From the NCBI GenBank assembly GCA_048213135.1, contig PS015020.1:636055-696305 (forward strand): DNA of 60,251 nt, given 5' to 3'. A program made the position numbers and the translations under genes. The notes beneath the pieces were generated by a model. The model was not told where the DNA came from, did no database searches, and saw nothing but the letters and a program-made list of their open reading frames with translations. The number at the start of each line of letters is the position of its first letter. Position 1 is the stretch's first letter. Shown one piece after another: positions 4,957 to 17,481 of this stretch. The DNA comes from Reclinomonas americana ATCC 50394 (lineage: Eukaryota).

Positions 4957-6748
4957 TTACTCGAGAGTCTCTTGCAGCAACAGCAGCACCTTGCGACGAT
5001 TGTCAGAGTCCTGGAACAAGGCACAGATGAGGTTCGACAACTCCATGGCGCGGAACTGCTTGGCCGTGAGTTTGCCACGCCGCAGCATCTTTTCAATGTC
5101 GGCCAGCCGCGAGTCCAACAGCACCACGAGTTGCTGGAAGCGTGACCAGCAGGGAACATACGACTGCACACGTTGGCTGCGTCAGCATTCGGTACAGAGA
5201 GAAACACGAGGCGGGGCAGAACGCACGCACCTCCACAGCGCCGCCAAAGTAATCTTGCACGCCGTAGAGCACGCTGAGCGACTTGTGCAACATCTCCGAG
5301 TAGCGCGCCGAGATTGTGTCGAGTGCGAGGAGCTGCGCACACACGTGTCGCAGCACGTGTTCCACCACGGTGCCGAGGTGGCGTAACCGAATATCGTCTG
5401 CCGGCAGCACGCGCAGCTGCTGGTGCAACTCGTCCAACGCCGTGACGCACAAGTCCAATTGTGCGTGCAGGGCGTCCTCCGAGAGCACTTGCTGCATGGT
5501 GAGGCGATCCGACAATGTTCGTGCTTGCCACTCCTGAGGGAGAGTAAGATTAACAGGTGCGTGCATCTGCCATCTGTCGGCACACACTCACCATCACTCG
5601 TCCGACCGAGTGCTCGGCCACCAACCGCAGTCGCGACTCGACTCCGGCCAACTCCAATGCAGATTCGCCTTGTACGGCAACAAAGGCGTGCACGATGCGC
5701 TGCACGCAAAGGGCGACACAGAGATAGTCGTTGTGCAGCAACAGAACCGCGCCGACTGTGTTGACTGACGTGCGCAGGCGCGCGTGCGCCAACGGTGTGT
5801 CGGCCGAGTAGGCCAGGGGGGCAGCGGCGTGCGACTGCGACGAATTTCAGTGACTGAGATACGCGAGTGGAGTGTGGCGCAAAAACCTTGGCAGTGGCGG
5901 GATCCACGAGATACAACGAGTGCAACAGGTGCACAATGTCGCGCACTGCCGCCAAGTACACCAATGCCACCCGCCGTTGTGACCTGCATGGTTCGGCAGT
6001 GTAAGCGACGCACACCACGGTGAGAGCGACGTGGGAGCGCTGACCTTGCGGTGTAGACCAGCGGACGCACGATCCGATCGGCCAGCACGCGCAGCACTTC
6101 ACAGCACAGCGGCGACACGGGCGCGCGTGCCAAGGCCAGACCCACTGAGCGCAGCCAGTCAGATTCCTCGTCGCTGAACGCGAGTGTGGACGTTGGCGCC
6201 AGCGCCTCGTCCACCGCCATCACGGCATCGACGCCCGACGGTGCCGGATCGCCTGCGCGTGGAAGAGAATGCAGGCACTCGAGTACCTCCGTGCGTGCCA
6301 TGTCACACACGCTTTGTGCGCACACGAGTAGCAGCTGCATTCGCCCAGTCAATCACACGAGAAGAGAAAAATGATGAGGAAAGAGGAGAGGGAATGAAAC
6401 AGACCCGCTCCTCTGAAAACGCCTGGTGCAACTCGGCGACGGTCGCATCGGCCTCCAAACCGGAGCTGCGGCTAATCCACGCACACAAGTCGGTGACGGC
6501 CTGCTGCACCTCCGAGGCATGGGAGGGTGTGGGGTCGGCGGCCAGTGAGCGATGCAGTGCGGTGGCCAGCGGACACTCTTGCCTCTGCAGGAGTGTGTGT
6601 GGAGTGAGCAGCGGGAGATGCGTGGCTCACCGGCGACGAGACACATACCGTGGAAGTGTTGAGAAGATAGGCCAGCACGGTGTGGGAGGCGGGATGGGCG
6701 TCGGAGACACCGCGATTCAACTGCGACACGGCAGTGAGGTACAAGAAG

Positions 6749-6797
<49 letters not shown>

Positions 6798-7680
6798 CTA
6801 CAGAATTGTGTGACTTCCCTCTCTCCTCACGAACCGCCACATCCACATGCTGCACCGTAAACTGCAGCAAACACCGCACAGCCTTCGCCACACGCTCGTG
6901 CCTGTCCGCCGTCGCCTCGCGCTCCCCGACTGCCGCCACTTGCACGGCACACGCACCGTCATCGACCGACAGCTGATCCTCTCGCGGAAACGCATGCTCT
7001 CCCTCGTCACCACAGCCACGCAGCAGCGTCCACGCAGCCTCGGCGAAGCGCTCCAGAGTCTTGCCGGCCACGCCCAACTCTTGCGCCACGACATAGCTGT
7101 CGCGCAACGACTCTGCCCATCGCGGTGAGCGCGCAAGTCGGTGTGACAACAGCAAGCAGCAAGGCGCACCGCGATTGGTCACGCGGAAGCCCGTGTCTGT
7201 CACTGGCAATGTCGACAAGACGCGATCGCTGGCCTTGCTGGCCAACAGCGACAGACGTGACGCAATCTCCTCCTGCTCTCCACGCGCGTGAGGCAAAAAG
7301 AGTGTGTGTGAGAGAGAGAGTTGCGCATACACTCACCAGTCCAGTTGACACGGGCGCCCATGTGCCGACATCGGCCAGTGTGTCGCGCACATGCAGCAAG
7401 TGTGCGCGCTGTGTGTGGTGTGTGTGAGCGCATGTATGTGTGCATGAGAGAGTGAGAGAGACACGCAACAGCCTCGTGAAGCAGCGCGAGTCCGCCAGCA
7501 AGAGGGTCGCCAAGGGAGTCGTACTCGGTGACCAGTGAGTGTGCCTGTGTAAGGGGGACAAGAGGAGAGAGAAGAGTGAGTGAGAGAGGGAAGAAGTGAG
7601 AGAGAGGGAGAAGAACGTGAGGCAGAGAGTGAGTGAGTGAGTAAGTGAGTGTGAGTGTGTGTGTGTGCGTGAGAGAGAAA

Positions 7681-7715
<35 letters not shown>

Positions 7716-8002
7716 CGGGGAGCGCGCGCACATCAACGTGAGTGACTTGTCTCTCTCCCTCTCTCCTCCATTCCCCTTCTCTCCTCCACACGCACTCTTA
7801 TGGCCCTCTCCAGCACATCAGCAACAGTGCGCTCCCGTCGCAACTCGCGCCACGCCTTCTCCTCGGCGGCCTTATCCTCGCGATCAGTGGTCGACTGTTG
7901 TTGCTGATGTTCTCTGTGTGCCTCGCGGAGAGCATCCTGCGCCGCACGTTCACTCTCTCGAGCTGCGCGAACGAGCGCATGTGTCTCGCTCACAGACTTC
8001 AT
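4957..8002 (-). CDS. ZW10: ZW10/Dsl1-like kinetochore and ER-tethering protein; multi-exon, start uncertain (8002 or 8053)
   Basis: C-terminus WSRFQQLVVLLDSRLADIEKMLRRGKLTAKQFRAMELSNLICALFQDSDNRRKVL matches the ZW10 C-terminal pattern (L...L.EI...W..G....F...EV..LIRALFQ.T.RR). Also HNDYLCVA, similar to HNNCMYIA, and QLLALDTISA. Confidence 0.75.
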
Positions 8003-8087
8003 TGGTGAGAAGAGTTTTTCGTTGATTGAGTTGTCCGCCGCAAAACTCTTCATGAAGACCCGTCCCCAACTGGTGTTGTAACTCTCC

Positions 8088-9352
8088 TCACATGACGCTG
8101 CATCCGCGATCCACACCACGACGGCGGTCCCGTTTGCGACGGCGGCTCTCCCTCTCTGCTTTCCTCATCGCCTTCGCCTGCAGCTTCTGCTTATATTCCG
8201 CCTTTTGCTCACGCGTGCCTTCCAGCTGTGCGTGCGGCGATGAGCAGAGTGTAATAAATAATACCATCAGCACGCTTGTGAAAACCGGAACGCACCTCCA
8301 CTTTCATGCCCCTCGCACGAAGGTTTGCCGGTTCAGTGCCATCCAGACGAGCGGGAGCAACGGGCTGTAACAAACACAAACATGAGAAACCATCGCATGC
8401 CAGCAAGCTTCCGCACGCACGCAACAGCGGCTGGCTTGGGCATCTTCTTTGGCGGCTGCACCAAGAAACCAGCGGGATTATCAATGAGACAGAACATGGA
8501 CCGCCGCAAAAATACGTACCTTGTCCTCCTCGACGTCGTCATCGTCGTCATCAACGCTCGTTGAGTCGTACTCGTCGCTGCTGCAGTCATCGTCGTCGTC
8601 ATCGTCGTCATCAACGCTCATTGAGTCGTACTCGTCGCTGCTGCAGTCATCGTCGTCGTCATCGTCGTCATCAACGCTCGTTGAGTCGTACTCGTCGCTG
8701 CTGCAGTCATCGTCACCGTCATCGTCGGAGTCGTCACTCTCCTCTCCACTCTCTTCGTCATCACTGTCGTCGTCTTCTTCCCAGGTCGACATCGAGGCCT
8801 CAGAGGCATACTCACGAGCTTGAGGCGCGGCTGCGGTCGGTGCGACCACAGGTACACGAGCTCGAGGCACGGTTTCAGACATCGCGACCTTGGGCACGCG
8901 AACTTGAGGCGCTGCTGCGGCCATCGCAACCGCAGGCTCTTCGGTCGCCGTCATCTCCTCCGCGGAGCGCTTCCGAGACTGAGAGAGACGGCGACTATGA
9001 TTCTCAGCCGCCTTTCACACGCACACACACAATGTGACGAAACTTTGGGAGTGTGCAGGACCTCCGGCTCGCCGCGCAGACGAGCCAGCAGTTGCGCACG
9101 AGTGCCCGTCACCTGTGCACAGCTCTCGTGAGAATGACCAACTCTCTCTCTCTCACACACACACACGCACCCGCATGTAACGCTTGCGCAGTTCATCCTG
9201 TCGACACAGAGAGAGAGAGAGTAAGTTAACTTCATGCACACACTCAAACTTCATGTGTCGCGCGTCACCTTCAGCTCCACCACTCTCATCCTGTCATAGT
9301 CAGCAGAGGAGGGACCAGCACCGCTTCCACTCGCACCGAATGAGTGTGCCAT
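8088..9352 (-). CDS. SAP-domain acidic/basic protein with C-terminal CaaX (CSVM); short tandem paralogue B
   Basis: Exons give MAHSFGASGSGAGPSSADYDRMRVVELK|DELRKRYMR|VTGTRAQLLARL (SAP-like helix-extension-helix), a long Asp/Ser tract, then ...ESRRRKRDRRRGVDRGCSVM* with the stop at 8088-8090. Confidence 0.65.
8533..8720 (-). repeat. 60-bp coding tandem repeat (about 3 copies) encoding DDDCSSDEYDS(T/M)SVDDDDDD
   Basis: The lines starting 8521, 8581 and 8641 are near-identical with a 60-nt period. Confidence 0.95.
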
Positions 9353-9677
9353 CGCTCGCACTTCAACTCGAGAAAAGGTTTGCGTTCAATTGTCCCGAGC
9401 GGGAAATGCTCGCGCTCCACCCACTGTCCCAAATCAAAATCGACGACTCACTCACCGTTCGGTCTCCAAGGACGTGCTCTGCCAGGCACTGGAGCTGGCA
9501 CCGCAACCGCTGCACGCATGCGCAGGGTCCGGACTCTGTATTTCTCCTCCGGTCCAATGCACCATCGCCCCACTCATAGGCACAGGGCAGGCGGGGACAT
9601 CAAACACAGACCTTTCACAAACAAACAACAAAGTTCATCGGTGTAACAACTAATTCTCCTCTGCGAGCTCCTCCATT

Positions 9678-12189
9678 TTACATGATGCTGCACTCGTCGT
9701 CGGCGCCGTTCTTGCGGCGACGACGGCTATCACGTTTACGACGGCGGCTCTCCATCTCAGCCTTCTTTGCCGCCTTTGCCTTCTGCGTCTGCTTGTGTTT
9801 CGCCTTTTGCTCACGCGTGCCATCCAGCTGTGCGCGGCGATGAGCAGTGTGTAAAGCAGCACGCTGCTGAAAACCAGAACGCACCTCCACTTTCATGCCC
9901 CGCGTTGAGTTCTCGAAAACACTGCACAACTCGTCGTTGAATGTGCCCGTGGCCGTGATGAGGAACATCATCAGGTGGTAGTTCGACAGCATGTCGGCGG
10001 TGACAGCATTGCCAAACAAGTGCTCTCGCAACGCCTTGGCATCGGACGGCTTAACATGCGACTTGCCCGGCATGAGAATCCTCTTCCCCTCCTACACCGT
10101 GAATGACGATTGATGAGATGCAAGAAACACAGCGAACTCGACGGCCACAGAGCACTCCTCACCGCCTCCGTCGCATCCTGTTTGGCCTCGAGCAAATCTT
10201 CCGCTCCGCGCAGGCGGTAACAGACCTGGCCATTTCGCTCCAGCGACTCCATCCTACAGATCCTCCCCCTTTAGCCATCACGTCCTTCACAGAGCACAAC
10301 ATGCTGTGCCACGCACCGCATTCGATAGTGCATGTCCAGCTTGAAGTCGACCGAGTTCAACGAGTTGGGCGAGTAAATGCGCATAACAATGGTGGCGTCG
10401 CGGAACCTGTCGTCGTCATAACTGGGGTCGAAGAACACGCAGCACGGTGCCTTCGAGAGGGCATCCACAAAGCCAGCGGGCACTGCGAATGAATGAGAGA
10501 ATAGACACACGCAGACGGAAAGGAAGGTGAGCGGCGACTTACATTTCTTGCCATGCTTCTGCAAGTACTTGGCGGCCTGATCACGGCAGCTGTTGTTCCA
10601 GAAGCACTGACCGATATCATCGTGGCTAATGTCATCGTAGACTTCGATCCACTCGTTTCCACGCACGGGACCTGCGTTTCTCCCCGGGTGAGAGAATGTG
10701 CGGGCACAGCGGATGGCGATAAGAAGGTGCACCTTCAGTCTCCAGATCGTTGCGCTCCGCCTCGTACTTGCGGAACTGCTCGTCGGTGCCTGCAGCGGCG
10801 CTAAGAGAGGCCATGCTCCAGCGCTTTTTGATGCTCTCTGAGGGAGAGGGAGGGAGAGGGAGAGGGAGAGAGTGAGGGAGGGGGAGAGGGAGGGGGAGAG
10901 GGAGGGGGTGAGGGTGAGGGTGAGAGAGGGAAGGGAGGGAAGGGAGGGAAGGGAGAGGGAGAGGGAGAGGGAGGGAGGGGGAGAGGTGAAGGTGAGAGAG
11001 GGAGAGAGAGGGAGAGAGAGAGAGGCCGACTGCGGAAAGCGACGAAACCCAAGTCGCCAGAGAGATGGCACTGGGAGGAGAACGCGAGAGTATGAGTGGA
11101 ACAGTGCCCATGGGTAAAACAAGGATGGAAGGGGGTATGTTGGGAGGAGAGTGGAGAAGGCAAGAAAGAGGACGGCGAGCTGTCACTCGGTGGAAGGCAC
11201 CCAAACAAGAAGAAACGCACTAAGGTTTGCCGGTTCGCTGCCATCCGGGCGGGCACGATTGACGGGCGGTTTCTGCGACAAACATAAGCATGAGAAACCA
11301 TCGCATGCCAGCAAGTCCCTGCATCCACGCAACAGCGCTAGCGGCTGGCTTGGCCCGCTTCTTGGGCGGCTGCACCGTGGAAAACCCAATCAGAATACGG
11401 ACCGCTGCAAACACAGACACACACACACACCGAATCCTCCTCGTAGCTGTCGTCATCATCGTCATCCACGCTGTCGGCGTTGTATTCGTCGCTGCTGCTG
11501 TCGTCGTCGTCCTCCTCCTCCACGTCGCGATCGCCACGGCAAAAGTCACGGAAATGTTGGCGGAAGCGCCAGTCACCGTCGTAGTCGTCGTCACGCCCTT
11601 CTCCATACTCGTCGTCGTCGCTCGCGTGATCCTCTTCCCAGGTCGAAATATGTGCAGCAATGGCATACTGACGACCTCGAGGCTCGGCTGCAGCCATCGC
11701 GACCGCAGGCTTCTCAGTTGCAGTTATCTCCGCCGCAGGGCGCTTCCGAGACTGATCGAGGACGGAGACAACACAACCGAGATTCTCAGTCGCTTTTCAC
11801 ATACATGATGATGATCATCCACAAGTGACGAAACTTTGGGAGTGTGCGGAACCTCCGGCTCGCCGTGCAGACGAGCCAGCAGTTGCGCACGAGTGCCCGT
11901 CACCTGTGCACAACTCACGCAGTGAGAATGACGCGATCACACAAACACAAACAGACACAAGCATTCACCCGCATGCCACGCTTGCGCAGTTCATCCTGTT
12001 GGCACACACAGCGAGTAAGCTCACTCATACGCACACACACAGAGGCACACACAATCTTCACGTTTGAGGATGCATGATCACGTGTGTGTGTGTGTCGCGC
12101 GTCACCTTCAGCTCCGGCATTTTCATGCTGTCAAAGTCAGCAGAGGAGGGACCAGCACCGCTTCCACCAGCAACGAGTGAGTGTGCCAT
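9678..12189 (-). CDS. SAP-domain acidic/basic protein with an unrecognised central domain and C-terminal CaaX (CSIM); full-length tandem paralogue A
   Basis: Exons give MAHSLVAGGSGAGPSSADFDSMKMPELK|DELRKRGMR|VTGTRAQLLARL, an acidic tract, central exons (EWIEVYDD, ATIVMRIYSPN, ALREHLFG), then ...ESRRRKRDSRRRRKNGADDECSIM* with the stop at 9678-9680. Confidence 0.7.
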
Positions 12190-13080
12190 CGCGCGTCTGG
12201 GGGGTTGTTTGAGAGGGTTTGTGGCAATTGTCCCGGGCCTTGGCGGCAAGGAGATGGAACCGCGGGAAACGGTCCTTTACGTAAACTCGTTTACAGAACC
12301 ACTCGATGATGAGCGGATGGATATCGGGCGACGCATGCACAGCACAGGCGCAGCAGACGATTATTGTGGATTGTGGACAACTGTTGAGAAGGTGTGCATA
12401 TCCATTGGAATTCCCGGCCAGGTTGACTTATGTCGACGTCGTCATGGATCATGACGCAACAGCGCAACCTGGAGCCCTTGAATAAAATTCTGGTTTCACA
12501 GAATCTTTGACCGCAGGAGCGTGGGTCCAAGTGTTTTAGAGAGCAATGCACTTGCTGTTCGAATTCGGTTTTCGTCGACTGGTCGAACGAAAAAGTTGCA
12601 GGAACCGGCGTCTCTTTGCTGTGCCTGGCACAGAAACAGGAATGTGTCGTCAAATGCACTGTTTGGCCACGCTTTATCTGACGTGTATCGCTGTTTTCGA
12701 TAAGTTAGAAGCTCAGAGAGCGAACACGCCCATGAGAAATCATTCGCTTTCGCCAAGATTGCCCGTTGCATTGACTCTCGGGATAGTTTCAGCTTGTTTG
12801 CCGATGAATGAATTGTTGTGTTGCCCGACGACGAATGCGTATCAAGAACCCCACGCAATCGCTTGGGTCATCGAGATGTCTCGTGTGCCCACGCAAGATG
12901 GTGTTTTCCTGCTGCTGTTGCTGTTTGGACTAGTAAGTTGACAGCTGTTGATGGTTTGTTGGTGAATGAATTGTTGTTGTTGTCGCCTCGCCTCATTGTG
13001 TACACTCCAACCTTCTTCACCTCTAAACCCCCACCTACTCTCAATCCCTCTGCCTGCAACTCTCTCTCCATCTCCCCTTT

Positions 13081-14077
13081 TCACCGCTTTGGTGACGAGG
13101 CCGATGCCGGCGGGCTCGGATGCCTCGGTGGTGTCACCGCCGGCGATGCACTGGGCGTCGGCAGCCGTCCGTACGACAACGACGGCCGCAGTGTGCTGTC
13201 GGCCAGCGCGGGAATGTGGCGGAACAAGTCCAGGCTGGCGGGGTTGGCCAGCGCCTCACGATTGGTCGGCTCCTCCAGCCCATTGATGATGCGCTTCACA
13301 GCCACCTCCACCTTTTTTCCGTTGAGAGTGTATGGAATGTCGGCAATCGGCAGCACGAGACTCGGCACGTGTCGCGGACTGAGTTCGTTGCGAATGGCCG
13401 TCTTGATGCGTGACACCAAATCCTTTGTTTACAGAACACGAACGGGGGTGAGCAACTCGTGACGGAACCACACACACATGCAGCGCCGCTCTCTCTCTCA
13501 CTCTCTCTCTCTCTCTCTCTCTCACCGGCGTCAGCTCCTGGTCCTTCTTCATCAGCACAAAGAGAATCACCCGCTCGTCCTCCTCGACACGTTGCCCGAC
13601 GGCCAAGCTGTCGGCCACCTCCTCGAATCGCTCCACTGCGGATGCGGTGAGTCATCCACAGCAAGGTGACGGAAAAAGATAGTGGCGCCACGTACCGACA
13701 TTGTACAACTCGGCACTGCCGAAGCGCACGCCGGCGGGCTTGAGAGTGGCATCACTGCAGTAGTGCAGAGTGAGTGCCGATGCAACACGCAGGCAGAGTC
13801 TTCGCAGCACAAGCAGTCCTCGATAGCATTTTTTCTGCTATGCCTCCTGAGACAGAGGCAGACATTGCTCTCTCCGCCTCCTTGTTTGTTACTGCCAGGT
13901 CTCTCTCTCTCCGCCTCCACTACTTTCGCAAACGACTCTGTCTCTCATCCTCAACGACAAGCATCATACACGAGACAGGGCGTCTTGTCCCTCATTCTCT
14001 CTCTCTCTCTCTCAAGCACAGCGGTCTCCTGAGAAGAAAAATTCAGACAGCCTTCATTGCTGTTTCTACGCACTGTA

Positions 14078-14149
<72 letters not shown>

Positions 14150-14448
14150 CTACTCCTACTCTCTACTCTCTCTACTCTACTACTCTCTCTCTCTACGTCT
14201 CTCGTCCTNNNNNNNNNNNNNNNNNNNNNNNNNNNNNNNNNNNNNNNNNNNNNNNNNNNNNNNNNNNNNNNNNNNNNNNNNNNNNNNNNNNNNNNNNNNN
14301 NNNNNNNNNNNNNNNNNNNNNNNNNNNNNNNNNNNNNNNNNNNNNNNNNNNNNNNNNCGGTACGTACGTACGTAACGTAACGTAAACGTAACGTAACGTA
14401 ACTACGTACTACCGTACTTACGTTCTCGTTCGTTCGTCGTACTACGTC

Positions 14449-14514
<66 letters not shown>

Positions 14515-14587
14515 CACTACTTTCGCAAACGACTCTGTCTCTCATCCTCAACGACAGGCATCATGCACGAGACGGGGCGTCTTGTCC

Positions 14588-14626
<39 letters not shown>

Positions 14627-17481
14627 AAGCACAGTGGTCTCCCGAGAAGAAAAAATGCAGACAGCCTTCATTGCTGTTTCTACGCACTGCAGTCATTCTC
14701 TCTCTCTCAAGCGCACTTGCCTGCTGAATAAGGAGACTGCAGACAACTGTCTCTCTCACCCTCGATGCAGTCTCCATGCACAACAGTCTGTCTCTCTTTC
14801 TCTCTTTTCTCTCTCTTCTCTCTCTTTTCTCTCTCTTTCTCTCTCTCCCTAACCCCCCCCCCTCTCTCTCCCTCCATCACCCACCTGCGACCGTGCATCC
14901 AAATACCCCCCGTCGCCGCATTGATCGTGATAAAGTCACCGTGCGCCCACTTGCCCTCAAACATGGCAAAGTAGGCGTTGTGGTACTTTTGACCGTCGGC
15001 ATCATTCCAAAAGTAAATCGGCATGGACGGGAACGGAACGGTGCACACCAATTCGCCCTCGCGGTCATGCACCGGCTGGCCTGCACGCAGAGCAGAAAAG
15101 AGTGAATGAGCGCACGTACGATCCGCAACAGAGCTATCGGGAGCGGATATGTTCACGCACCCAGCGAGTCGAACGCAAAGACGGCCATGCCCAAGTGACG
15201 TGCCTGAATCTCGCCACGATGCACCGGCATCATCGGATTGGAGCCCATGAAGCAGCCGAGAATGTCGGTGCCACCTGGTGCATGCAGGCAAGAATGAAAA
15301 AATGATGAATATCGTGTGATAAGATGACGGCGACAAGAGAACGGCGGCCTCACCAGAAATGGAGCCGAGCATCACATCGGCCTTGATGGAGCGATAAATG
15401 TAATCAAAACTCTCCGACTTGAGCGTCGAGCCAGTCGACAGCACGGCTCGCAGACGGCGCAGTTGGTGTGTCTCGCCTGCGCACATGCACGGGACAATGA
15501 GCAACAACAACACAGCAGTCGCAGCTCGCCACGACCGACGCAACGAGGGCAAGCGCCGGCCTCCTCCAGAGCAGAAAAGTACTTGGCACTGGCGCCAAAC
15601 ACGGAAATGTCGTGCGCATCCACCATGTCCCACAGCACGCTGCAGCGCACGTGAGAAAAATGGGATGCAGCATTACGACGAGCGCAACCTGCAGCGCAAC
15701 TTGCAATCGGGCATGAACGGATTGCCGTCGTAAAGCACAAGCGTGGCACCGGCCACCAGGCCGGAGACTAGCCAGTGGAACATCATCCACGCGCACGTGG
15801 TGAAGAAGAACAGCGTGTCGTCGGCTCGCAAGTCCGACTGCAACAGGTGCTCCTCCATGTGCTTCAGCAGTGTGCCGCCAGCCGAGTGCTAGCACGCACC
15901 AGCTAGTTAGTAGGACTGCGAGGTGGAGGCGACAATAGCAGCAGCAGCGAGAGCGCAACGACAATGCACTTGGGCTTGCCGGTCGTGCCCGACGAGTACA
16001 AGATGAACAGTGGATGACTGCTCGGCAGCTGCTCAAACTCCAGCGGTGGCACTGTGCCATCAGCAGCTGTGCCCTTGGCCATAAAGTCGCTCCAGTCCAT
16101 GCTGCAAGGGGAGGCAAGGGGAAAGTGAGAGCACAAGAAAAGAGAGAGCGAAATAGAGCGGGTGCAGATCGCACACCAGTTGGGAATGACTGACAGGTCG
16201 TCCACTTGTGGAATCGGGCAAGGTGTGAACACGACGACGGCTTCGAGGGTGGGAATGGCTGCGCGCAGAGTTCATCGGTGAGGTACGTAGAGAAAGGAAG
16301 AACGCCTCGCAGAGTATCGAACAGAACAAGGAACACATCACACACGCACGAGAACAGCCACGCACACAAACATAAGCAGACGGCCATTCACACACCCACA
16401 CGCACATGCGCACTCACAGACACGAGAAGTCAGTCATTCACATATTCGCCCAACGCGCCCACAAACACGCACACGCGCTTTCCCTACGGCACACAGAACA
16501 GTCAAGTGTACAACTACGACAAGGACGACGAGAACCCAACACACGTACCGGCACAAATGAGAGCAGGCAAGTAAACAAACACGACACATCATCACAGCAT
16601 GTACAAAAACAATTTCCCAGACCAACGCACAATGCCACTAACTCTAACTCACATACGCGCGAGCACACAACTGCAGCCGCAATTCCAATCTCTGTCTCCC
16701 TCCCTCCCTCCCTCCCTCTTTCCCTCCATGATGCGCTCACCATGCGCAATCTCCACAATCTTGTCAAACAACGCATGCGTCTTTCCACGATAGCACTGGG
16801 AACGCGAGGCAAACAGTACACGCGGACCAATCTGGCTGAATCGGTCGACCACCGCCTGCGCCCTCACGCACAACGGTAAGCGTGCACGCACACACACCAA
16901 CTCTCCTCGCCACGCCAAACTCACCGACACGCCGAAATCCGGCGACGTGGTCGAGTAGACGGCACCGAGTGCACCGCACGCCAGCAGCACAATGGTGGCC
17001 TCCAAAGTGTTGGTGACAAAGCCGACAACACGGTCGCCGGCTGTCACACCGAGCGCACGCAGTGCGTGCTCACACTGTGCCACTTGCTGGCACAGTGCGA
17101 AAAGAAGGTGTGAGGCGGAGAGACACAGCGGGGGAAATCGCGGAGAGAGCTCACCTCGCGCAGCTGTGCGTACGTTAGGCGCTTGACATCGGCCGAGTTC
17201 TCCACCAGCGAGATCAAGGCCGTGCGGTCGTCGCTGCCGGCCGCCAGCAAATTCTCGGTGAAATTGAAACGAGCGTCCAGGAACCAGCGGGGGATCTCGT
17301 TCATGGGCTTGTCCTCGAGCACCTGGTGCGTGTGAGCGGGTGAGAAAGGGGGAAGAGGGGCCATACGACGAAGAGAGAAGAGCTTTCTTAATCGTACTTT
17401 CTCTCTTACTGCTCCTGCTGATTGCCTTGCCTCTCAGTATCTTGCTTGGCATCCTCCTTGTTAATTCTCTCTTGTTTACGT

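Follow-up and report, generated by a model that had tools for sequence, protein, structure and literature searches.

Two neighbouring genes of the protist Reclinomonas americana raise the question of whether a DNA-binding motif and a lipid anchor in one protein can link chromatin directly to the nuclear envelope. Their predicted products begin with a SAP motif and end in a CaaX box, a combination for which no report was found in the literature searched; a SAP protein with a lipid-attachment signal may fasten chromatin at that membrane's nuclear side or otherwise to the nuclear membrane. Recognisable lamins are missing from many eukaryotic lineages, in which, according to the sections of PMC5630835 that deal with this point, novel lamina configurations are expected and unidentified. 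Non-lamin farnesylated nuclear-membrane proteins are also few, the relevant part of PMC2947476 (2010) naming only Kugelkern. The locus lies in strain ATCC 50394 (GCA_048213135.1, contig PS015020.1, forward positions 636,055–696,305), and this whole stretch of 60,251 nt is referred to here as the window. We favour, at a probability of roughly 45%, the reading that genes A and B are tandem genes for nuclear SAP proteins that would be farnesylated, held at the inner nuclear membrane and tie chromatin to the envelope.

A and B are neighbouring tandem paralogues on the minus strand, with GT-AG introns only in the predicted models (table 1); genome searches found no further copies. The introns of B are short (58–71 nt), lie at positions common to A and suffice to join the SAP motif to the CaaX box. 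The weakest joints in the model of A are the atypical donor of intron 5 and the 383-nt intron 6, which if read through leads to a stop and is followed by a Met early in exon 7. These features would suit an explanation in which the CaaX boxes are unused, either as products of chance or tail capture, or because the models are wrong (A being two genes split at intron 6, and B a young decaying duplicate). The same explanation could draw on a possible donor kept at the deletion junction of B, the use of which would remove the tail, and on the gap of only 34 nt that separates the stop of B from the first ATG at which the ZW10 gene could start. However, intron 6 has the same donor as three other introns, its last 200 nt are 93.5% pyrimidine and its CAG is in frame. 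Tight spacing is not limited to B and ZW10 either, since a CAF1-family gene of this genome starts approximately 85 nt behind the apparent stop of its neighbour. A decayed ZW10 start in the spacer that follows A was considered and rejected, with a score of 22 that 789 of 1000 shuffles also reached.

Table 1. Features of genes A and B, in window positions.
Feature	Position	Strand	Remarks
Gene A	9678..12189	-	12 exons, 478 aa, end CSIM; predicted: single open frame, 11 GT-AG introns
Gene A exons	12189-12106, 11995-11969, 11903-11835, 11751-11431, 11369-11334, 11272-11221, 10837-10733, 10671-10543, 10482-10317, 10253-10163, 10091-9885, 9827-9678	-	
SAP motif of A	11868..12129	-	aa 21-49, interrupted by introns 1 and 2
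Acidic tract of A	11431..11637	-	~aa 99-167; charge profile
Internal NLS-like PPKKRAK of A (KKMPK in B)	11349..11369	-	motif scan
Orphan central domain of A	9885..10837	-	aa ~197-429, ~230 aa, exons 7-11
Arg-rich basic cluster of A	9711..9746	-	acidic spacer DDE, then cysteine
CaaX box CSIM + TAA of A	9678..9692	-	
TTTCCCGC	12262..12269	-	E2F-like site, 73 nt upstream of A ATG
Gene B	8088..9352	-	7 exons, 291 aa, end CSVM; predicted: single open frame, 6 GT-AG introns
Gene B exons	9352-9269, 9197-9171, 9112-9044, 8978-8520, 8455-8426, 8364-8296, 8225-8088	-	
SAP motif of B	9074..9292	-	aa 21-50; Tyr in place of Gly after first helix
Acidic tract of B	8523..8780	-	charge profile; lengthened by 60-nt tandem repeat, 8530-8727, 3.3 copies
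Deletion junction in B	8296..8325	-	exon 6 end + old donor joined in frame to last 18 nt of A exon 11
Arg-rich basic cluster of B	8118..8144	-	
CaaX box CSVM + TGA of B	8088..8102	-	
TTTCCCGC	9399..9406	-	E2F-like site, 47 nt upstream of B ATG

A Pfam scan of single exons returned no family for any of the eight pieces, because the SAP motif is spread over exons 1–3. A surrogate profile, made from six distinct domains of the same genome that pass Pfam PF02037, was run on the spliced proteins. A scored 20.1 bits and B 11.6 bits, above all controls (at most 6.9 bits when residues 1–60 were shuffled 2000 times, with 1586 shuffles reported, and at most 6.2 bits for 1134 window frames). This profile run bears out the N-terminal SAP-like motif that the initial annotation had proposed for both copies, as the charge profile does for the long acidic tract that follows. 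The motif is weaker in B, and in its core the copies are set apart by nine non-synonymous and no synonymous changes. Among 15 SAP matches of the genome, no CaaX-stop was found within the 49–1500 nt examined downstream.

At the other end of the proteins, the basic clusters described in the initial annotation as NLS-like are present on the minus strand (9746–9711 in A and 8144–8118 in B). Measured against what we take to be the NLS consensus, A has further such motifs apart from the tail, at aa 60–65 and 168–174, and exon 4 opens with a second basic motif, RKR, in both copies. A charged, helix-like stretch (~38 aa) precedes the CaaX box; a coiled-coil rod is evident in neither copy. With the predicted splicing, the annotated CSIM at 9678 and CSVM at 8088 both stand directly before the stop, an end to which most of the alternative acceptors also lead; the alternative MEELAEEN end of A needs acceptors at least ~160 nt past the first CAG, and its frame is stopped in B. 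These are the only two C-x-[IV]-M-stop ends among the 2428 six-frame stops of the window. Given the composition of the 1081 coding residues, the chance of C-x-[IV]-M is 4.7 × 10−5 and that of a looser CaaX 1.2 × 10−3. The genome-wide count of C-x-[IV]-M-stop is uninformative, at 227 against 220 in a codon-swapped control (not above) and 95 in a reversed control (above). Other genes of this genome have CaaX ends too, some with KKK-C, where A instead has acidic residues beside the cysteine. One of them, the CAF1-family nuclease, likewise combines basic motifs with a CSIM end, so a basic tail with CaaX is not special to a tether.

Comparison of the copies adds two points to the initial annotation. 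The central domain of A (exons 7–11) is absent from B through an in-frame deletion that leaves the frame of B intact to the CaaX box, and the CaaX boxes of A and B are the product of a single ancestral event rather than two independent ones. B is thus, as predicted from its frame, a minimal protein of SAP motif, linker, basic cluster and CaaX. Coding length changes between the copies kept the frame in six of six cases, and dN/dS was 0.46 over 133 ungapped codons (p = 0.013) and 0.31 in the basic tail (38 codons, p = 0.025). The initial annotation had stressed that the CaaX box is kept while the residues upstream differ. Both copies do end in C-x-[IV]-M, but this retention is no more than overall similarity predicts: with 17.6% divergence, the two differences seen in 15 nt have P = 0.49, and compared with the 15 nt upstream the contrast is of borderline significance (p = 0.050). 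CaaX retention between A and B, being non-significant by itself, would also fit unused boxes; the composition chance of about 5 × 10−5, the link from SAP to CaaX by short introns in B and the frame-preserving length changes all speak against them, and we regard that explanation as very unlikely.

Farnesylation of the CaaX cysteine in A and B is likely. On a microsatellite-rich contig, the genome carries a fragment coding for a farnesyltransferase beta subunit, with a best E of 3 × 10−29 compared with 5 × 10−21 for RabGGT beta and 4 × 10−12 for GGT-I beta. The assembly also contains matches over cut-off to PF04140 (ICMT family), for which host and contaminant origins are both possible. CSIM and CSVM are both entered as farnesylated human termini in the table of PMC7674641, in agreement with their annotation as farnesylation-type ends. 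Of the proposed prenylated DNA-binding protein at the nuclear periphery, the first part is therefore well supported, judging from the SAP profile, the CaaX box and the farnesyltransferase beta subunit, while the peripheral tether is a leading reading only.

In that leading reading, both proteins would be farnesylated at the CaaX cysteine, probably imported via their basic motifs and held by the farnesyl group at the inner nuclear membrane or rim, where the SAP motif, on its long acidic linker, may bind DNA and so link chromatin to the envelope. A would be a tether with an added orphan globular domain and B a stripped tether. The gene models, the SAP and basic motifs, the CaaX box at the stop, the farnesyltransferase beta subunit and the kept frame of B are the elements seen in the sequence that favour it. 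Against it stand the unexceptional CaaX retention, the purely non-synonymous changes in the SAP core, the lack of an evident coiled-coil rod, the absence of homologues in the fragment searches described below and the similar tail of the CAF1-family nuclease. The rod matters for comparison with Drosophila Kugelkern, as described in the portions of PMC2947476 that concern its localisation: this non-lamin protein, like the proposed tether, has an NLS and a C-terminal CaaX, is farnesylated and acts at the inner nuclear membrane. It differs in that the coiled coil is required beside NLS and CaaX for membrane localisation (without it the protein remains in nucleoplasmic puncta), and no SAP motif is named in those portions, by whose description we set it apart. 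They also report that GFP-NLS-CaaX acts on the nuclear membrane.

The tether would resemble LEM-like/HeH proteins whose transmembrane anchor had been replaced by a lipid. The HeH/LEM-like proteins with an MSC domain (yeast Src1/Heh1, Man1/Lem2 and Dictyostelium Src1; PMC4810098, PMC5630835) share with A and B an N-terminal two-helix motif of SAP/LEM/HeH type, a long linker and the proposed role of tying chromatin to the envelope. They differ in having two transmembrane segments and MSC, whereas A and B have no MSC match and their anchor would be farnesyl. By eye and charge profile, hydrophobic stretches are lacking in B, and in A there is only one short apolar run (aa ~399–407). Lamins, including prelamin A, whose last four residues (CSIM) are those of A, and Dictyostelium NE81 (PMC4448529, PMC5630835), share the basic NLS-like motif and CaaM end; all have an alpha-helical rod, and they carry an Ig-like tail. 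A and B have neither, and between SAP motif and tail are acidic, low-complexity or alpha/beta. They are not lamins, and not LEM/MSC proteins. TbSAP of Trypanosoma brucei, compared by its description in PMC8034637, is likewise a protist SAP protein with disordered regions, shows enrichment at the periphery of the nucleus and represses genes; the main text of that paper has no mention of CaaX or prenyl.

An exon-wise search of the genome of limited sensitivity returned 15 matches to the Ig-like lamin tail domain (LTD, PF00932), none at this locus, and no lamin with rod, LTD and CaaX among them (10 inspected). One intron-bearing LTD match, on C327, is not a lamin, lying directly behind a frame that we take to be TAM41-like. 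For the rod (PF00038), none of nine matches was over cut-off and there was no match at this locus. MSC (PF09402) had no match in the genome, this locus included, though the search controls also went without a match.

The Arg-rich tail could instead be part of a prenylation switch of the K-Ras4B/CaM53 type, in which the farnesylated protein sits at the plasma membrane or endomembranes, keeping a DNA-binding protein off chromatin, and the unmodified or released form is nuclear, with the same stretch serving as NLS. The net charge of the 20 residues that precede the cysteine (+5 in A, +7 in B) would suit this, and CaM53 is at the plasma membrane if prenylated and in the nucleus if unmodified (PMC12197051). 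Yet A has three acidic residues between basic cluster and cysteine as well as its further NLS-like motifs, and studied SAP proteins are nuclear, so we consider a switch rather unlikely. The plant proteins CaM53, AtNAP1;1 and APETALA1 resemble A and B in combining a basic region or chromatin function with a CaaX box, and prenylation shifts their localisation; their folds are unrelated and no SAP motif is described for them in PMC12197051.

AtNAP1;1, which is farnesylated and nuclear, and APETALA1, a farnesylated transcription factor (PMC12197051), lend themselves to a further explanation: a nucleoplasmic chromatin factor or enzyme, either DEK/NAP1-like by its SAP motif and acidic tract, or with a SAP motif that brings nucleic acid within reach of the orphan domain, which may be a nuclease. 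Farnesyl would then mediate a protein contact or tune import, and would not be a stable membrane anchor. The long acidic tracts and the CaaX tail of the CAF1-family nuclease would be in keeping with this. So would the Atlas neighbours of exon 11, which are mainly restriction-endonuclease families, at values (0.76–0.79) that are chance level. On the other hand, the fragments searched matched no NAP, DEK or nuclease family, and B kept its frame without the central domain, which is thus dispensable for whatever B does. We judge this explanation distinctly unlikely.

All central-domain queries were fragments of the domain: exon 9, either by itself or joined to exon 8 through the intron between them, and exon 11, either with the tail or lacking it. 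Remote relatives may therefore be missed. With these fragments, no relative was found in a set of 5.8 billion proteins, phmmer against 1.84 billion representatives gave nothing at E 0.001, and neither Pfam, NCBIfam and PHROGs (one row at E 0.13) nor PDB sequences (one row at E 0.83) yielded a match. The Atlas gave no relative (best 0.80 and 0.82), and viral and prokaryote contigs yielded none either. A lone metagenome match (L055) was rejected because it lies antisense to an insertion-sequence ATPase gene. A low-confidence single-sequence model of part of the domain (mean pLDDT 42) is mixed alpha/beta, and a fold search with it gave nothing at E 0.001.

If the tether reading holds, a lipid-anchored SAP protein would be a one-piece link between chromatin and envelope, in a protist with no lamin or MSC protein detected by low-sensitivity searches, and the short copy B would show which parts suffice. 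The more specific proposal of a lineage-specific, lamin-independent tether, with farnesyl for the transmembrane anchor, B naturally minimised and A carrying an undescribed domain, is a tentative one. Should the lipid keep the protein outside the nucleus, the protein would be a DNA-binding factor gated by prenylation, a less novel case. Upstream of each gene lies one copy of TTTCCCGC, which we take to match an E2F-like consensus; these are the only two copies in the window, a count at chance level.

Genes A and B are tandem paralogues on the minus strand, which upholds the duplication proposed in the initial annotation: the six intron positions of B are all common to A, and GT-AG borders were found at all 17 introns of the two predicted models. 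Searching the 108-Mb assembly at both the DNA and the protein level turned up no third copy. The A/B locus occurs once in this assembly; many other matches came as near-identical pairs on two contigs, which are haplotype duplicates, and the largest contigs have a bacterial look. In A, intron 5 has an atypical donor, and intron 6 might mark the border between two separate genes, but this 383-nt intron has a common donor, a 3′ part that is 93.5% pyrimidine and an acceptor in frame. A possible donor is kept at the deletion junction of B, and its use would remove the B tail.

Features of the A/B locus and its neighbours (window positions)
Feature	Position	Strand	Details
ZW10 gene	4957-8053	-	PF22766, E 2.7e-13
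Gene B	9352-8088	-	predicted, 7 exons, 291 aa, ends CSVM-TGA
Gene B, exons 1-3	9269-9044	-	
TTTCCCGC site	9399-9406	-	just upstream of B
Gene A	12189-9678	-	predicted, 12 exons, 478 aa, ends CSIM-TAA
Gene A, exons 1-3	12106-11835	-	
TTTCCCGC site	12262-12269	-	just upstream of A
Upstream neighbour gene	13081-16400	-	one scanned fragment, no Pfam match

In the last exon, the frame ending in the CaaX box has 26 of 36 residues identical between A and B, against 22/35 and 20/35 in the other two frames, both of which contain stops. Most alternative acceptors lead to the same CaaX end. An ending in MEELAEEN, raised earlier as a possible terminal frame, would require introns of at least 214 nt; in A and B alike, splicing to the first CAG leads into the CaaX frame. 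As first described, both predicted proteins end in a CaaX box; of the 2428 stops in the six frames of the window, no others follow C-x-[IV]-M. PMC7674641 tabulates CSIM, from lamin A, and CSVM, from a Rheb, among farnesylated termini, and a farnesylation signal is likely in A and B, as predicted from their termini. A gene for a farnesyltransferase beta subunit is present, and the assembly holds 10 ICMT-family matches (PF04140), host and contaminant contigs taken together.

Given the composition of 1081 coding residues, a particular protein end would read C-x-[IV]-M by chance with probability 4.7e-5 and match a looser CaaX with 1.2e-3. Among eukaryotic proteins, roughly 0.5-1% are true CaaX substrates; from this comparison we infer that a functional CaaX is much likelier than a chance one, the boxes of A and B counting as one event. 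Their 15 nt differ at two positions, which the local divergence predicts (P 0.49); the 15 nt upstream differ at eight, a borderline contrast (p 0.050). Genome-wide, the CaaX pattern was counted 227 times; a codon-swapped control gave 220 and reversing the pattern gave 95, so that the count favours neither use nor chance. That the motif is unused, or the gene model wrong, is improbable. Exact C-S-[IV]-M-stops number nine: A, B, three KKK-rich tails, one CAF1-family nuclease and three others. The CAF1-family ribonuclease gene (L074:5620-8752 on contig G000:C89, plus strand; PF04857 matched 3/3 pieces), presumably PARN-like, has two basic NLS-like motifs followed by CSIM-stop at its end, so that this genome has another protein acting on nucleic acid whose tail is of the farnesylation type. 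C-P-[IV]-M-stop patterns are clustered on several contigs (G000:C51, C56, C89 and C176).

Pfam gave no match for single exons of A or B because two introns interrupt the SAP motif. An own-genome PF02037 search yielded 15 matches, nine over the cut-off, from which a profile was built on six distinct domains, leaving out three identical twins. Spliced A reached 20.1 bits and spliced B 11.6 bits against this profile, compared with a best of 6.9 bits among 1586 reported shuffles (2000 made) and 6.2 bits among 1134 window frames. Of the N-terminal SAP-like motifs attributed to both proteins, that of A is real and that of B is weaker.

B lacks exons 7-11 of A: its exon 6 continues across what is left of the former donor and joins the sequence matching the final 18 nt of exon 11 of A, with the frame kept. 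All six coding length changes (84 nt, a net 54 nt in the acidic tract, 6, 6, the large deletion and 12) preserve frame; as a small control, three of the five introns that differ in length likewise do so by a multiple of three. Between A and B, dN/dS was 0.46 (p 0.013) over 133 ungapped codons, excluding the repetitive acidic tract, and 0.31 (p 0.025) over the 38 codons of the basic tail. B has probably been maintained as a SAP-linker-basic-CaaX protein, although such pairwise values measure constraint on the two copies jointly and not on B by itself. Exons 1-3 show the opposite trend, with 13 non-synonymous and two synonymous changes (nine and zero in the SAP core) and a dS of 0.04 versus 0.4-0.7 elsewhere. 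Recent conversion could explain this pattern, as could divergence of the SAP motif or selection on it.

The central domain encoded by exons 7-11 of A has approximately 230 residues of ordinary globular composition. Its fragments had no relative among 5.8 billion proteins or 1.84 billion representatives, and nothing in Pfam, NCBIfam, PHROGs, PDB or Atlas, or in viral, metagenome or prokaryote contigs; a single-sequence structure model of part of it was unusable (pLDDT 42). On these fragment searches the domain is provisionally an orphan. SAP and CaaX in one protein were not found in the main texts of the literature covered, a scope outside which most subscription papers fall; one paper that contains both terms employs them in separate contexts. 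We conclude that this duplicated orphan gene carries a genuine combination of domains that had not been noted before.

Assignment as a lamin was rejected, the rod being the sole domain common to all lamins according to a passage in PMC4448529. PF00038, the rod-type family, gave nothing over the cut-off in an exon-wise genome search of low sensitivity, and no lamin was seen among the 10 of 15 own-genome lamin tail domain (LTD) matches inspected, which were bacterial-looking, Cys-rich repeat or TAM41-linked. Six stretches (L041-L046; G000:C9521, C2227, C2697, C9451, C3453 and C2698) encode a family whose long Cys-rich repeat proteins close with a bacterial-type LTD. In L047:4340-7060 (G000:C327) and L048, an intron-split LTD match directly follows a frame that we take to be TAM41-like, possibly as one fused gene. 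A HeH/MSC protein was likewise rejected, since members of that class have an MSC domain and span the membrane twice (PMC4810098, PMC5630835); PF09402 had zero matches in an equally insensitive exon-wise genome search. By analogy, A and B may nevertheless work similarly, with a lipid anchor like that of Kugelkern.

If A and B are farnesylated on the CaaX cysteine, imported into the nucleus through their basic motifs and retained at the inner nuclear membrane, the SAP motif, on its acidic linker, would be able to keep chromatin at the nuclear rim, a reading that we hold tentatively (probability about 0.45). In the relevant section of PMC2947476, GFP-NLS-CaaX acts on the nuclear membrane by itself, and NLS plus CaaX is insufficient in Kugelkern without its coiled coil. 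In A, NLS-like motifs lie apart from the tail and acidic residues adjoin the cysteine. A switch between plasma membrane and nucleus, by analogy with CaM53 as outlined in part of PMC12197051, is conceivable though unlikely; still less probable would be a nucleoplasmic factor using its prenyl group for protein contact, like AtNAP1;1 or APETALA1 (same part).

The first candidate ZW10 ATG lies only 34 nt behind the B stop, so the 3′ UTR of B must overlap the 5′ end or promoter of ZW10. The upstream regions of A and B gave no significant alignment, and TTTCCCGC, by consensus presumably an E2F-like site, has its only two copies in the window there, one for each gene; a cell-cycle promoter element is possible. 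The upstream neighbour presumably resembles acetoacetyl-CoA synthetase.
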